64,000 nucleotides of DNA from Naegleria gruberi (taxonomy: Eukaryota), in the NCBI GenBank assembly GCA_000004985.1, contig GG738877.1; one strand, 5' to 3'. The position numbers and the translations under genes are program-made. The notes below the pieces were generated by a model. The model searched no databases. It saw only the letters and a list, made by a program, of their open reading frames with translations, and was not told the DNA's origin. Positions 39,195 through 55,200 of this stretch are shown in pieces. Each line of letters begins with the position of its first letter. Within the stretch, counting starts at the first letter, position 1.

Positions 39195-40347
39195 ATGGCA
39201 AAACGTAAAAAGACACCATCAGCACCAACAACGAATAAACCTTCATCACTAATAGAAATTCTGCAAAGTTTCGGAATTATAGTCAAGACAAAAGTAAATT
39301 TTCACGATAGGAGAAAGGTACAAAGTTTAGAACAACAATTTACTGAACACTACATGAATGAAAGTTTATTGATACTTGATGAACCTAATGAAGATCATTT
39401 CGAGGAAATTAATCATCAAATTGTTAATGGAAATTTATATTCAGTTGGTTATCGTAAGAATCAGTTTTTTGTAAATATTAAGAAATCGAAATTACTTATT
39501 CGATTTAAATGTGATTTTGATCATTCAGGTTTATTTGATAAGGTAGATGATTTTTTTTCTGATAAATCTACAGAAATGGTAAAGAAGGAGATGTTCTATT
39601 CGATTGTTAATTCGGAGAGAAAGAATACTAATGTGATGCATATTGAATTTGATTTGAAATTTGATTCTTTTGTGGAGATTGTTAAATATCTGAATATTTC
39701 AGAAAGTAGGATTGGGGATTTCATGTTAGAAAATGAAATTCTTTCAAGATTAGTTGAAATTCTTGATGTTGACCAAGAAAAGAAACAAGTGTATATCAAA
39801 CTCAAGGCATTTGGCATTGATGCAACAGCAAATGTATCAAGTTACTACTTGATGGGAAAAATTGATGGTAGTCAATCATGTTTCATGCTCGATTTATCTT
39901 ATTACATGGACAGAAATCCAAACCTTTCAACCATTGACAGCATTTACAGATTTTTCACACCAATCCATATCAAAAATCGAATTTATGACAAAGGAACACC
40001 ATCTACATTCCATGATTGCAAGAATATTGGAATTTATAGAGTATTAATTGGATATTTCTTTTGTGCAATGACGGATTCAGATGCAGGAAAGCACGTTAAG
40101 AGAAATAACATTCATCCATATGATATTACATGATATGTTGGATCCACAAGCTCTTCTCTCAGGAAAGCACAGAATAATTACAGAACTATCGACCAAAAAA
40201 TATTTTTATGATTTCAGGCACCAATTTTACACATACGGAGGAATAGTTGATACTGGATTTTACAAATTCGAGTTAAAGCCAATGTGTAAATTTGAGAACT
40301 ATTGGGGAATGAATTTTAAGAGAGAAATTTATCATTTTTCATTGTAA
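39195..40347 (+). CDS. Hypothetical protein, probably 2 exons: 39195..40040 and 40081..40347, joined by a 40-nt intron
   Basis: ORFs 39177..40133 and 40081..40347 overlap in different frames. Removing the 40-nt segment GTATTAATTGGATATTTCTTTTGTGCAATGACGGATTCAG (phase 0) fuses ...KNIGIYR|MQESTLREITFIHMILHDM... into one protein of about 370 aa. The first real ATG is MAKRKK at 39195. The function is unknown. Confidence 0.45.
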
Positions 40348-47082: not shown

Positions 47083-48126
47083 TTATCTGTAGAGTTGCAC
47101 TCTATTGTTGTAAGTGTCAGCCACTAGTAACGTCTCACTAGCATCATCAAAATAGACTCCATAGGGTTTTCTGAATTGAGAATTAGTTACTCCAAAAGTT
47201 CCAAAACTGTTTACAAACTCCTCCCTCTTACAATCGAAAAGTTGTACTCTGTGATTCGATTCATCTGCCACAAATATCAAACCTTTCTTTTTTGATAATG
47301 AAATTCCTCTTGGCAATTTTAAATTACAAAATGAAGAGCCTCCCTTACCAAATGATTTCTGGGAATATTCAAGATTATTTGATGTGATAGATTTTTTAAA
47401 TTTCACAATTCTAAGACAATGACCATTCATATCGCTCACATATAGAGATTTTGTAGAATCATCAAAATCTATAGCAAATGGTTTTCTGAATGGATTATTG
47501 TTTTCTAATTGTATATTTCCTATTCTGTTCACTTCTGTTCCATCTTTAGAATTCAACATTATTACTGACTCAGAGGAAGTGTCACAAACTAAAATTATAT
47601 TCGAATTATTTCTATATGAAACACACAACCCAGTTGGATATCCTACACTAATATATTTCCAATATGTATGGCCAGATTTAGTACCCTTACGTATCTTTAG
47701 TTTCAATACTTGATTCATAGAAGTTCCAACAATCAAGGCATCCCTTTCCTCTCCTTTTTCTACACACAACGACAATGGTTGACCACTTAGCAACTGGATA
47801 GTCTCCTCCAAAATCCTTGTCAATAAATTAAATCCCAATATTCTTCCATTGTAATAATCACCAACAAGTATCAATTGTGAAGAATGAGAAACTGTAACAC
47901 ACCAAGGACAAGATATCAATCCATCTCCAATCGTACCAACATATCGGAATCCAATTGCAGAAAGTGATCTCATCCTCGAACAGAGTAACTGAAATAATTC
48001 CCTATCATCAAATAAATGTTGATTACATTGTTTTAATGATGACGATGAATTAATAACTTTTTGATTTGGAATATTTGAATAATTTTCCTTCTGTTGCACA
48101 AAATCCACCAGAATAATTCTTGTCAT
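47083..48126 (-). CDS. NHL-repeat beta-propeller protein
   Basis: 347-aa intronless ORF. NHL-like repeats include YVSDMNGHCLRIVKF, IFVADESNHRVQLFDCKREEFVNSFGTFGVTNSQFRKPYGVYF and LLVADTYNNRVQLY. Confidence 0.7.
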   Translation of the reverse strand: MTRIILVDFVQQKENYSNIPNQKVINSSSSLKQCNQHLFDDRELFQLLCSRMRSLSAIGFRYVGTIGDGLISCPWCVTVSHSSQLILVGDYYNGRILGFNLLTRILEETIQLLSGQPLSLCVEKGEERDALIVGTSMNQVLKLKIRKGTKSGHTYWKYISVGYPTGLCVSYRNNSNIILVCDTSSESVIMLNSKDGTEVNRIGNIQLENNNPFRKPFAIDFDDSTKSLYVSDMNGHCLRIVKFKKSITSNNLEYSQKSFGKGGSSFCNLKLPRGISLSKKKGLIFVADESNHRVQLFDCKREEFVNSFGTFGVTNSQFRKPYGVYFDDASETLLVADTYNNRVQLYR

Positions 48127-48260
48127 TTTTTTTTGTAACTTGAAATCTTCTACTATTTATACCTTCTAGGTAAGTTTATTATCTTTCCTAGACAAATGTT
48201 AAGAAAATTGTTGTTACTCAAATACTACCAATCAAAGTGTTTACAATTTTTTTGAGATGA

Positions 48261-50792
48261 ATGAACTCTAAACAGCAAAAGGATTTGAAATTTATTTTTA
48301 GATCACAAAAAAATAGCACACAAATGACAACAGAAGCAACAACATTACTTCCTGATTATGTTTTGAGAGCCGAGTGTAAGGGACATATTGATCAGTGTCG
48401 TACGATTTGTGCTAATCCACTTGTGGATGGAGGTATTGTCACAGGATCATTGGATTGTACAGTGAAAACATGGGCTCCTAATCCAAATTATAAGGAGGAA
48501 CAAACTAATATCGAAAATACAATGTTTGATGGTGAGGAATTGAACAATGCTAGAAAGCAAAGTGAATATCAATGCTCTTTGACAATGGTTGGACACGAAA
48601 AATTCATCACATCTATTGATTATCTTCCTGATCATTATGTAGTTTCCGGATCACACGACAAATCACTCATTGTTTGGAATGTTGTTGATGGAACTCCAGT
48701 GAAGAGTTATCCAAATGCTCATAGCAATGCAGTCAGTTGTTTATCTGTTGACAAATATACAAACACTATAATTTCAGGTTCTTGGGATAAGTAAGTACTT
48801 TTAGTTTTTAAAAAATCGATTTATTCACACTTAACAGATCTGCAAAGACATGGCATTTTGATAAGGATGCAGCCATTTCCGAATTGAAGGGACATGAACA
48901 AAACGTTTTGTGTGTTCTAGGCTTACAAAATGGTATTATTATCACTGGTAGTGGCGATGGAAGTATTAAATTCTGGGAAAATGGAAAGGAAACTCGTGAC
49001 ATTGCTGCTGCTCATTCATCATGTGTTAGATCTCTCAAAGAATTACCAGGTATTGGATTTTTATCAGCATCAAATGATGGTACTGTTAAAACCTGGACTT
49101 TACAAGGAGATTGTATTGGACATATTCAAGCACACAATACATTAGTTTATTCTGTTGAAGTAGCACCATCAGGAGAAATCTTGACAGCCAGTGAAGATAA
49201 AACTGTTAAAATTTGGAGAGGTGATTCTTTGGTACAAACCATTGAACACCCAGGATGTGTCTGGCAGGTTGTTTGTCTTCCAAATGGTGATATTGCTACA
49301 GCTTGTTCTGATTGTGTTGCCAGAGTATTTACTAAAAATCCAGAAAAGGTTGCCAATCCACTAATTATTCAAAGCTTTAATGATAATATTGCAAATTCAA
49401 AGAAAAAGAAGAGTGGAGTTGATCCAACTAAATTGACTACAGAATTAGCCTTGCAAAATACAAAGGGTACATCAGATGGTGAAATCAAACTTGTCAATAA
49501 TAGTGGTATTCCAGAAGCTTATTCTTGGAATGCTGCTCAACAAAAGTGGGATAAACTTGGTGAAATTACAGATGGACCAGGTGTAGGAGATGGATTCTCT
49601 CAAAGAACTTTCTACAATGGTAAAATGTATGATTACGTTTTCGATGTAGAACTTGAACATGGAAGTGGAATGAAGACTTTCAAACTTCCATATAATAAGG
49701 GTGATAACCCATATTTTGCTGCTCAACAATTTATTTGGGATAATAATCTTGGACAAAACTATTTGGAACAAATTGCTCGTTTCGTTATGGATAATGCTGA
49801 TGCTCATGATACTGTACCATCAGACTTTGTTGCTGGAGATCCTTATACTGGTCACCAAAGAGAAACTTTCGCTGCCAAGCGTCCAGGTACTGAATCAAAC
49901 CCAACTACTTCCTCTCCATTCTCTCAAGAACAAGATAAATATCAAAAGGAATTAGAAGAAAGAGAAAGACAAAAGAAGGTCAAACATTTCCCAGCTACCA
50001 CCAAGGTCTTTGATCAAGCCAACTATGATGGTATCCTTAAAAAGCTCAATGAATTTAATGAAAATGTAAAGACATCTGATGCATCTCTTGCTCTCTTACC
50101 AACTGAATGCACTACTTTGACACAATTATGTACAATTCTCAAGGCCGGTCAAGGTGAAAAAGTCACTTTAGCACATGTTGCTGTTGTTGAAAAAGATGCT
50201 TAACTGGCCAATTGAAAAAGTTTTCCCAGCTGTAGATTTATTCAGATTATTGATTTTAGCCAACCCAGTTGCTAATCATTACTCTGAACAATATAAGAAT
50301 GGCACCAATATTTTGATCAAATTGGTAACCTTGTGCTTTAACCCAACAACCACATACGCTGCTTTGAAGATGCTGGCTTTTAGAGCTTTAGCTAACATGT
50401 TCTATACACAACAACTTAAATTCATTATTTCCAAGCATGCCCAGATCGTCATTGACAATGCTGCTAAATCTGTTGATACGACCAATGCCAACATGAGAGC
50501 AGCCTATTCATACTTTTTGCTTAATACTGCTGTCAGTATTCACACAAACACTCAATCAGATGCATTGAAAGAGAAACTCTTGGCCTTAATCATCCAAGGT
50601 ATTCCTGATGAAACAGATCACAATATCCTGTATGACTTGTTGTGTGCTGCTGGTACAGTTTTGACAGGAGCTAGCGAATCTATAAAGGCTATTGGAAAAC
50701 AACACATTCAGACATTTGCACAAAAATCAGCCAATCCAACAGCTAGAGTAGCAGCTGCTGCTTTCCAAGTTGTTTCCCTGTTAAACCAATAA
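48261..50792 (+). CDS. PLAA: Phospholipase A2-activating protein / Doa1-Ufd3 homolog (WD40 - PFU - PUL); exon 1 48261..48790, exon 2 48838..~50172, then a +1 frame change into 50175..50792
   Basis: Seven WD repeats. The signature GSWDK|SAKTW is split by a 47-nt GTAAGT..AACAG intron. The PFU domain reads KLPYNKGDNPYFAAQQFIWDNNLGQNYLEQIARFV. The PUL/ARM domain reads MLNWPIEKVFPAVDLFRLLILANP...., in a different frame. The human alignment [24 protein letters not shown] versus EKVTLA-[H/Q]-LLLLKKMLNWPIEKVFP is gapless only if one nucleotide is removed near 50170-50176. Confidence 0.8.
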
Positions 50793-50836
50793 ATTGTACA
50801 TTTACTCATTATCTTTATTTTGGAAGATAATTTAAA

Positions 50837-52196
50837 TTATTCGATTCTCAGTAAATACTCTGATTGAAAAGCCATTGTTACAAAATTTAGATCCTTGTCA
50901 GCTTCAGCTGTTTTCCCAATTCCATTAAGCAATTGAGATCTAAACTCAATTAACGTTAGGAGTTTGTATTCATTTTCAACTGCAGATCCATCAATATTCT
51001 TAATTCCTTGATCAACAATGGAAATAGCGTCTTCAAGTGAATTTGAAGAGCATGCTTGTGTAATGTAAATTGTATAATTTTTTGGGTATTTCTTGCTTAA
51101 TTCCTCTAATTCTTCCTTGAATTTTTGTTTCGAATAGGCTTTATAAGGATTATTCCTTAGCATTTTTTCCAGAGCCGAGATTCGTTCAACTTCCATTACT
51201 TCCACCTGATCAGGGTTTGTGACAAATTTCAATACTGTCTCACTATCTTCCACAATCTGAGCGTAATTATCCGTTCTAGCATTTGTAGACATTCTGTTAG
51301 AGTAAACAAGTATATAGTTAGAGCAATTTTCAACAGCTTTACCTAAATATTTAAGTGCTGTTTCAGATTCCGTGTTAATATAACAACATCCAATATTGTT
51401 ATAGCATAGTGCTCTTCCCACCTTGAGTATTCTTTCTTTATGCTCTGGATAGTAAAAATTTGGAACATTACAACCATTTTCCAAGCTTGTGATTGCATTT
51501 TCAAATTCTTTGATTGCATCAGCATATAAATCAATATCCATCATAACACAACCAGCGTTGAAGATTGAAAAGAATGGTGTAAAAATATCAAACAATGAAT
51601 ACATTGTTTCTGCCATATTTCTTGATATCGAATAAAATGATTGATAATATTCCAATACTGTTTCCTTTTCAATTTTAAAAGCACTCAAATATAAATCTTT
51701 AGATTTTCTATAATTTTGTGCAACCTATTATTATTTAATTTCAATATGAAAGTAAATTAAAAACTGTTGTAATATTATATACATACCTCCTCTATATATC
51801 CATCACATAACAAAGTCCAAAATGGATGTCCTCTACAAACGAATTTTGTGATCGTGACAGCCCGAAGCATTTCCTTTTGATTACTTGTCTGAAAATACAG
51901 TAGTGCTCTCTTATAATAAGCCTCTATTAAATTAATAATAATACCAATATAATTCCTATCATCACTCCGAACTAAAACTAACCTGGTTGGAATGGGCATA
52001 AATCAATAGCCTTCAATAATTCATCATGTGCTGCTTTAAAATTCCTTTCAAACCGAACGGAATCAACAGAAATCATCACTTGACGATACTTTTTTCCGAT
52101 TTCTATTAATTCCTCCTCTTTCCAATCTTTTAGAGATGGTGCTCCATTGATCAATCCAGTTTCAGCGATTGGAGGAGCCAATCCAATGTGTTGCAT
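50837..52196 (-). CDS. TPR-repeat protein; exons 52196..~51986, ~51985..51787 (frame change near 51985), 51724..50837
   Basis: The N-terminus is MQHIGLAPPIAETGLINGAPSLKDWKEEE, followed by the TPR-like motif RFERNFKAAHDELLKAIDLCPFQP. The next TPR helix, NYIGIIINLIEAYYKRALLYFQ, is in another frame and lies within ORF 51775..51999. A 62-nt GTATGT..AATAG intron then joins to VAQNYRKSKDLYLSAFKIEKE.. in ORF 50837..51688. No canonical intron explains the first frame change. Confidence 0.6.
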
Positions 52197-52250
52197 TTTT
52201 TTTAAATAAATATTAGAAAATATATGTTGTAAATTTTTATTATTTAAAGA

Positions 52251-55200
52251 TTACAATAAATGAGTGATTACTTCCTTGCCACTTCCCTTGATGAGTAATA
52301 TTTTGGAGGAAATATTTTGAGTGAGATGTTTCAAACATAGTACATAATCCAAATTTGAAAGATTTGATGTTAATGAGGGAAGGTTTACAATGACAAGTTG
52401 TGTATCTTTTGGAGTGGAATGTTGTCGAATGATGGTATTGATTCTTGATGAGGTATTCAAATAGTCAGTAATGGTCAGGTTGGGAACATTCGAATATTGA
52501 GTACTCAATTCGTCAGTTGGGGTTGTTGGATTATTTTCAATATTAATGGAAACTTCATCTGCATTTTGTTGCGGTGTCGATGGAAAATTGAAAACCAGAG
52601 AATCTAATCCTTCATGATACGACATGGATCTCACATCTCTAAAGATGGACTTGTTAATTTTGCTTGAGGGTTTCAACATTCGTTCTCTTTCTCTTTGGTC
52701 ATGTGTCACAACGAATGGAGAAACATCGTGTGGTCTCATGTAGAGAACGTGACACTCTGCTTCAAATCTTAAATGATATAGGATATCGTGAACTCCTTCC
52801 TTAATCATTTCTAAACTAGAAGTATCATCAACAACAGTATAGATTCGTATTTTGCACTTTCTCCAAACTTTGTGTTTTTGGAGTAAGAAAGTTATGAGTA
52901 ATTCGAGTCCTCCTTCATAAATAATCCAATAGAGATCTATGAATCCACATTGTTCTTCCTCTCCAAATTCTCCCTTAGCTATAATAACAGCTTTTCTACT
53001 AATTTCTGCGTATTTTAACATTTCAACAAAGTTTCTAGCACTGATCTTGTCATCACTCATTGGGAATCCAGAAACAATTGTATTGGGAGTTAGAGGACCC
53101 AATCCACAATTCTGAATCAAATGATTGATACCCTCCTGAAAATTCTTAGCCACAATGACTTGAGAAAATCCAGTAATTGACTTCTCTTTCATTTTCAGGG
53201 AAAGGGCAAGTTGTTCCTTTCGAGCAATCTTGAACTTTTTCTTGTAATTTCCTTCAATGATGGCTGCAACTACACACAGACCTTGTCCCTTCTTGAGTTG
53301 GTTTGCAACATTGAGAATATCAGCATGTGAAATGGTATTGTTTGGAAGAATCTTTACGAGACACAAGAGTTGAGGTCTCCAATTCGACTTCTCGTGATAG
53401 GAACTGGTGGAGGAGTTAGGGTTTGTTTCACATGAATAGAGAGCATTGAGGGCAGTTTGCAATTTAACTCCACTCATAGCATCGCCAAATGCATTGGTTT
53501 CATTACTGACCTCAATAAGAATGTACAACAAGAGGCCAATGATGGCACATAACAGAGTCCAATACCATCCAATTAAAAACATGCAAATAGCACATACAAA
53601 GAATCCAAATACCCCTAACGACCAATGATAATACATCCACCTAGGCCTCCAATTAGGGCTAATACTGGCAACAAAAGTCGAAATATTGAGGAAAGCAAAT
53701 GAGAAGAGAATGAGCATGGCAATAAACGTTGAGATACTTTCCAAATTACCTAGAAAAAGGGGGATGATAGCAAGGAGAGCAGAAAATAAAGTAGCCTTCC
53801 TCATATTCACTGAACCCTTGCTTGTTAAATAGTGCAATGGAATGAATGAAATAATATTCTCGTCAACAATGGCTTGTACCACTCGAGGTGCAACCACAAG
53901 AGCTTGGATTCCTTCTCCCAATATTGCAATCAACATGCCAACTTTTACAATATAGGTTCCAATCGATAAACCAAAATCTGGAAAGGCAACCAGAGCAAAA
54001 TAAGCTGTATTCTCTCTCATCTCATCTCTCTTTCCAACAAAGCTCAACAGAATGAAAATTAGTACATACACAAAAGTGGAGGTAAGCAGTGAGGCAATAG
54101 TTCCAATAGGAATATTTCTTTGAATATGTTTAACATGCCCTGATCGATTGATTCCTGCCAAAATTCCAACTACACTTGGAAATATGACAGCCATCACTGA
54201 AAAGAAATCTTGTCCATGCTGGAATTGAGGTGGAAAATTTGCAACAAAATTATTCCACTTTGCTGATGTTATATGATATTCTGTTTTGACAGTTACAAAA
54301 CATCCAATGATAAATAACAGAATTGTAATGAATGTTGCAATAATAAAGATCAATTCAAATCTTACAACATGTCTGAAACCAATGAAAACAAGTAGGAATA
54401 TTAAAAATAGGAATCCAATGGCTAGAATAATTAAATCCCAGTAAGGATGTTGTAAATCAGAATCTATCATTTTGAAATACGGATAGTATATTCTGATGGT
54501 TGACATTAATAAATCTGCAGCTGCAAATGAGTGAAGGGACAATAGGAAAATGAAACCAACAAAATAAATCAGACCCAAACTTCCAGCAAATTGATTTCCA
54601 AGCACTCTTGACATAATGGCTATCGTTCCACCAGATTTTAACAATCCATTTGTAACTACACTTGTTAAGCTTAACCATGTTAATATAGCACAAATTACTG
54701 ATATGAAAATATACAAGAGGGAGAATGCCAATCCAGCATTTGCCAAAATCCAAGGTACTTTCAAGAAAAGAATAGTACCAAGCACTGAAGAAATGCAAGG
54801 AATATAAACTCCCTCAATTAGTCCATACTTTTTCTCTTCTTTTGGTTTGGTATTTGGTGAAATAGCAGCAGTACTGGAAGAAGGAGGAATTTGATTGGAA
54901 GGAGATGTTATCGATTCTTGTTGTAGAGAAACCACAGAACTTCTTCTCTTTTCCAGAGTTTGAGACATTCTCGAAAGTGGATCAGTGGAAATAATTTCAT
55001 TGAGGGTACTTTTAGATTTTTCATCTTGTAAAATGTTTACAATAGATGGTCTATTGTAAAACCCTTTCATTTCTTTGTCCAAATTTGAAATAGGTATAAT
55101 ATCGCTTTCCTTAAAACTTGTTTGGGAAATTGCATCCTCATCCTCTGTATGTATAGATAAATCATCACCACCAGAAATTACATTATCTAAATCCCACTTT

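Follow-up and report, generated by a model that had tools for sequence, protein, structure and literature searches.

Human PLAA and yeast Doa1 each combine a WD40 propeller with a ubiquitin-binding PFU domain and a PUL domain that binds p97/Cdc48, the PUL domain of the human protein being represented by the structure PDB 3EBB. The stretch examined here (the window) is 64 kb of contig GG738877.1 from the reference genome of Naegleria gruberi strain NEG-M, a draft Sanger assembly. On its plus strand lies a PLAA/Doa1/Ufd3 orthologue with a single intron and a WD40-PFU-PUL architecture. Unlike human PLAA and yeast Doa1, the coding sequence in the NEG-M reference is interrupted inside PUL, and the 610-amino-acid (aa) protein derived from it is without most of that domain. 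The reference carries five As (A5) at 50190-50194 where the functional gene has four (A4). The extra A throws the last 199 codons, which hold most of the p97/Cdc48-binding PUL domain, into the +1 frame and creates a TAA two codons later. Whatever its origin, the interruption is almost certainly a non-programmed surplus of one base in the A run.

Small frame breaks in conserved genes have been noted in related organisms. Read-checked frameshift discrepancies are described for the Ndc80 locus of the N. clarki assembly and for transcripts or HiFi reads of other heteroloboseans, sometimes within an A run, as in a Trinity transcript of another heterolobosean (bioRxiv 10.64898/2026.08.18.745565). 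The PLAA break resembles the Ndc80 case of N. clarki RU30 in that a small indel in the deposited sequence divides a conserved gene and the split is recognised only by homology. It differs in that the Ndc80-type cases were checked against reads, whereas the PLAA break is known from assembly sequence.

The reading frame changes inside PUL

The gene consists of three open pieces, 48261-48794 (frame 0), 48884-50203 (frame 2) and 50175-50792 (frame 0). The two N-terminal pieces match Pfam WD40 repeats (E=1e-15 and 9e-22) and a PFU domain is present (PF09070, E=1.7e-36, profile 2-111 of 113). The PUL domain as deposited is split, with profile positions 9-54 in the frame used upstream (frame a, codon starts at 2 mod 3) and 65-263 in the frame used downstream (frame b, 0 mod 3; E=1e-28). 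The PLAA/Doa1/Ufd3 assignment follows from this set of WD40 repeats, PFU and split PUL. The original prediction, made from the letters of the window without database searches, had reported a one-base frame disruption between the PFU and PUL domains. The disruption is real; because parts of the PUL profile are found in both frames, it falls inside PUL and not ahead of it.

Frame a reads ...GEKVTLAHVAVVEKDA and then meets a premature TAA, and frame b opens at 50172 after a TAG, reads HMLLLLKKMLNWPIEKVFPAVDLFRLL... and stays open to its own TAA (Table 1). Because of the frame-a TAA and the frame-b TAG, the change of frame is confined to 50172-50200 and must be +1, with one base skipped. With 206 stop-free codons (P ~3e-6 at the stop frequency of the window), the downstream frame is too long to be a chance opening.

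The position of the lesion was fixed with the orthologues of N. fowleri (FDP41_008927, 807 aa) and Willaertia magna (ABK040_013817, 816 aa), whose identity to the query is 76% and 64% over 96% of its length. Unlike the NEG-M reference, both are uninterrupted at the site and pass through it in a single frame with no intron. The N. fowleri protein has ...GEKVTTSHIVVVEKILQWPIDKIFP... across the site, reading HIVVVEK-ILQWP, and that of W. magna has ...GDKVTTNHISIVEKLLQWPSDKVFP..., reading HISIVEK-LLQWP. Frame a of the window (LAHVAVVEK) agrees with the orthologues up to the Lys (50194), and frame b agrees only from MLNWP (ATG at 50196). At the codon level N. fowleri has GTC GAG AAA ATC CTC CAA TGG and W. 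magna GTA GAA AAG TTA TTA CAA TGG, where the window has GTT GAA AAA G ATG CTT AAC TGG. Since the orthologues support frame a as far as HVAVVEK and frame b only after it, from MLNWP onwards, one of the As in GAAAAAG must be the surplus base; the functional A4 form is GAA AAG ATG (E K M). Correctly read, the gene encodes a WD40-PFU-PUL protein of 806 aa, with ...HVAVVEK-MLNWPIEKVFP... across the site.

Removal of one A turns the PUL match into a continuous one (profile 9-263, 141.3 bits), and the repaired PUL aligns without gaps across the break to human PLAA (3EBB, E=7e-16). The original prediction had anticipated the gapless human alignment, and the human sequence quoted in its support was correct. 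However, neither the human alignment nor the Pfam score can locate the site, because all one-base repairs are equal in length. The PUL scores of three repairs (141.3 bits for the A run, 139.9 for a site at 50176 and 137.2 for a shift at the stop codon) barely differ and are not decisive alone. Only close relatives can locate the lesion.

The distinction matters for the repair proposed in the original prediction, which removed a base at GCACAT|GTTG (50176), within an interval of 50165-50180, to give ...TLAQLLLLKKMLNWP. This repair also yields a gapless human alignment and a continuous PUL match. It is refuted by the closest orthologues and by the ENA contig described below, which bear out frame a (HVAVVEK) as far as the A run. 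It puts a wrong-frame peptide, LAQLLLLKK, into the protein, destroys a His found in 8/8 heterolobosean homologues examined and is outscored by the A-run repair. The proposed interval missed the lesion by ~10-15 nucleotides (nt), and a surplus base at 50176 deserves next to no credence. A +1 shift at the TAA stop itself, as in Euplotes, was rejected as well: it gives VVEKDANWP, where the relatives have a hydrophobic I/L-L, and has the lowest PUL score of the three.

A near-identical copy without the break

The ENA metagenome assembly ERZ929261 (run ERR1078381, project PRJEB11402; contigs k127_210463 and k127_553977) supplies a further copy of the locus. Contigs L003 and L004 overlap and together span window positions 47715-52883 (5.2 kb), with the intron and the neighbouring genes as in the window; the open reading frame (ORF) of exon 1 is likewise present on an ERZ929261 contig. 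At the site L003 reads GTTG-AAAAG (A4) against A5 in the window, and this fixes the lesion to the A run. Merged and spliced, the two contigs give an intact 806-aa WD40-PFU-PUL ORF, which shows that the functional gene of the species complex is in frame.

Relative to the repaired NEG-M coding sequence, the ENA copy carries 5 synonymous and 3 nonsynonymous differences. All 3 nonsynonymous differences are located between PFU and the break, and the stretch beyond the break has 2 synonymous and 0 nonsynonymous ones. The remaining six indels between NEG-M and the ENA contigs (48189, 48810, 51780, 51926, 51942 and 52224) all lie in putative intronic or intergenic DNA. The one at 48810 makes the PLAA intron 47 nt long in NEG-M and 46 nt in the ENA strain. 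Those at 51780, 51926 and 51942 are 2-, 8- and 3-nt indels inside or at the edges of the introns of the neighbouring gene, and those at 48189 and 52224 are intergenic single-base indels.

The copy in ERZ929261 stems from a second N. gruberi-like strain that differs from NEG-M by ~0.5% substitutions, and the assembly thereby offers an independent check on the NEG-M reference. Further contigs from the same assembly measure 5344 bp and 972 bp. A literature search for project PRJEB11402 found no paper.

Consensus error or genuine allele

We infer that the extra A is most likely a consensus error of the reference, made in base calling or assembly, a view that we hold with about even confidence. The lesion sits in a homopolymer (A5), and the A4 sequence is known from a different, 99.4%-identical strain. 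Only slightly less probable is a genuine and very recent A4-to-A5 slippage insertion in the NEG-M clone, on one haplotype or on all copies, which would leave PLAA truncated within PUL. NEG-M has been propagated axenically as a laboratory clone, and yeast can do without DOA1.

Slippage in homopolymers is among the common types of mutation, which favours a genuine allele. Because Naegleria is described as mainly heterozygous diploid and reproducing by mitosis (PMC9928731), an allele with a recessive loss of function could survive and be the one chosen during assembly. NEG-M itself dates from 1969 and was Sanger-sequenced, with a genome of 40.9 Mb and 35% GC (Table 1 of PMC9928731). Against a genuine allele, constraint is not relaxed downstream, identity to N. 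fowleri being 76.3% downstream of the break and 76.8% upstream, and the gene is intact in the 99.4%-identical strain and in the orthologues. These points require only that the mutation be recent or heterozygous; under a genuine mutation the downstream frame would be undecayed because the mutation is very recent. An old or decayed pseudogene was excluded by the equal conservation on either side of the break and by the intact downstream frame.

A second break of the same kind, for which the original prediction had advised a search in other conserved genes, was found 10 kb upstream of PLAA in NAEGRDRAFT_69251 (39195-40347, plus strand). Here a +1 frame break lies near 40120-40133 (CATATGATATTACATGATATG). 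The RefSeq protein XP_002675534.1 has 312 aa (39195-40133) and ends ...HPYDIT*, and the conserved C-terminus (...GGIVDTGFYKFELK...EIYHFSL) goes on in the +1 frame at 40081-40347. Two homologues (P0159, 396 aa, and P0160, 382 aa) hold both pieces in one stretch. No intron with a canonical donor was found at the junction, where the best candidate would remove the conserved YRVLIG motif. To see whether the ENA strain shares this break, seven guesses at repaired proteins and neighbouring ORFs were looked up; they returned only the 972-bp contig, which belongs to the upstream gene and is too short. All other junctions inspected in the window (~47 long open segments, ~53 kb) are canonical introns. 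A second break within 64 kb agrees either with an appreciable rate of indel errors in the reference or with an accumulation of mutations in the clone.

Several observations weigh against a consensus error at the PLAA site. Sanger consensus at several-fold coverage rarely miscounts four or five As. As the ENA contig comes from a different strain, it has no say on the true DNA of NEG-M. The second frame break lies outside any homopolymer and could equally reflect the mutational load of the clone; additionally, since the other inspected ORF junctions are clean introns, the assembly is not grossly error-ridden. Neither the genomic ORFs of the NEG-M A5 form (439 and 205 aa) nor the genomic or mRNA ORFs of the A4 form (635, 806 and 827 aa) were found in the protein collection, which returned only the 610-aa RefSeq protein. 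When JGI metagenome contigs were scanned for the exact pattern with either A4 or A5, 0 matches were found.

It is unlikely that A5 is real on all NEG-M copies. In that event NEG-M, the usual laboratory strain of the species, would have a PLAA/Doa1 without most of PUL, or a little full-length protein made through occasional +1 slippage of Lys-tRNA on GAA-AAA-G. The strain would then be a natural separation-of-function mutant of the ubiquitin/p97 pathway in a model amoeba.

Programmed frameshifting and introns

The original prediction had offered three explanations for the break: an assembly indel, a recent mutation and a programmed +1 frameshift. The first two both survive; the third is unsupported. 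Known eukaryotic +1 programmed frameshifts include those of antizyme (UCC-UGA), yeast Ty1 (CUU-AGG-C) and Euplotes (AAA-UAA/UAG). As in these systems, the shift needed here is +1 and a P-site AAA could re-pair in the +1 frame. Unlike them, the PLAA site offers neither a rare codon nor a stop in the A site and lacks a stimulatory structure, and the shift is not conserved even among members of the species complex.

In its specific form, a programmed +1 ribosomal frameshift (or transcriptional slippage) at GAA-AAA-G would make full-length PLAA from the A5 sequence, with the Lys-tRNA in the P site moving from AAA to AAG. The direction is the required one, the re-pairing is possible and would yield exactly the conserved VVEK-MLNWP, and the 0-frame stop stands two codons further on. 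Even so, we regard such a shift as very improbable. The shift is not conserved, since the frame runs unbroken in N. fowleri, in W. magna and in the N. gruberi-like contig that is 99.4% identical. GAT, the 0-frame codon in the A site, is used often in the long ORFs of the window (41 per 1000), and no 'hungry' codon or stop is located at the slip site. The fold of the downstream RNA is not significant, with a minimum free energy of -18.6 kcal/mol against -14.9 +/- 2.7 for shuffled sequences (z = -1.37; 18/200 shuffles at least as stable). A run of five As is too short for efficient transcriptional slippage. A literature search for Naegleria together with ribosomal frameshifting gave a sole match, PMC2938197, which is about tRNA wybutosine-modifying dioxygenases. 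No evidence points to a new mechanism of recoding; the break is a single-base indel of the ordinary kind.

A tiny or non-canonical intron that restores the frame was also considered by enumerating all GT/GC...AG and AT...AC excisions of length 3n+1. The gene does have one real short intron (47 nt), and GT...AG pairs of suitable length (10-34 nt) exist near the site. However, every candidate cuts into HVAVVEK or NWPIEKVFPAVDLF, whose residues the orthologues conserve. None has a GTAAGT, GTATGT or GTTAGT donor, which are typical of most other introns in the window (one has GTAATT). The candidates that keep the flanks are 10-34 nt long, as against at least 46 nt for introns measured or estimated, and the orthologues and the ENA contig have no intron at the site. 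With no plausible excision among the enumerated candidates, the dismissal of an intron in the original prediction holds, and we find such an intron scarcely credible. The chance of a programmed event or an intron of any kind is slight at most.

Parts of the gene and its annotation

The features of the locus are listed in Table 1. Once the intron is removed, frame 0 continues into frame 2 and the WD40 motif GSWDK|SAKTW is whole again. Exon 1 matches the 610-aa RefSeq protein exactly and is 80% identical to N. fowleri. An in-frame ATG is located at 48261 (MNSKQQ...), 21 codons 5' of the annotated start. The annotated start is probably right, judging by the N. fowleri protein, which begins near the MTTEATT position.

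Table 1. Features of the PLAA/Doa1 locus in the NEG-M window and the matching ENA contigs
Feature	Window coordinates	Strand	Description and evidence
Exon 1	48324-48790	+	WD40 repeats; start of RefSeq model XP_002675538.1 (MTTEATT...); ORF and Pfam WD40
Spliceosomal intron, 47 nt	48791-48837	+	GTAAGT...CTTAACAG; sequence; spliced product equals RefSeq protein
Exon 2, frame-a part	48838-50189	+	Remaining WD40 blades, PFU (~49463-49804), linker, first part of PUL (from ~50009); Pfam and orthologue alignment
TAG, frame b	50169-50171	+	Upstream bound of the frame-change interval 50172-50200
A5 homopolymer with surplus base	50190-50194	+	GTTG-AAAAA-GATG; codon alignment with N. fowleri and W. magna; ENA contig L003
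Exon 2 remainder, frame b (+1) only	50195-50792	+	Rest of PUL (to ~50735), true stop TAA 50790-50792; appears unannotated in the reference
Premature TAA, frame a	50201-50203	+	End of annotated 610-aa RefSeq protein (...VVEKDA*)
ENA contig L003	47715-50675		2958 bp; 99.36% identical
ENA contig L004	50632-52883		2313 bp; 98.8% identical

The public model (XP_002675538.1 / EFC42794.1 / D2VK35, 'WD-40 repeat-containing protein') has 610 aa and ends ...HVAVVEKDA at the premature stop. The remainder that encodes most of PUL appears to be unannotated, as neither of the two ORFs tried (205 aa from 50175 and 198 aa from 50196) was found in the protein collection. The value of the present result is therefore mainly one of curation, namely a correction of the annotation of D2VK35 / XP_002675538.1. 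Because the public model is truncated and without most of PUL, comparative studies could mistake N. gruberi for a species whose PLAA/Doa1 has lost its p97-binding module. That a second conserved gene, NAEGRDRAFT_69251, is split likewise 10 kb away suggests either that the 2010 Sanger reference would gain from being polished with short reads or that frameshift alleles have built up in the NEG-M clone.

Neighbouring genes

The genes upstream of PLAA are not syntenic with N. fowleri. Downstream, a gene on the minus strand (50837-52196) is divided into three exons by introns that begin with GTTAGT and GTATGT. Exon by exon it is 41-77% identical to its orthologue in N. fowleri, a TPR-like gene of 471 aa that likewise comes after PLAA.

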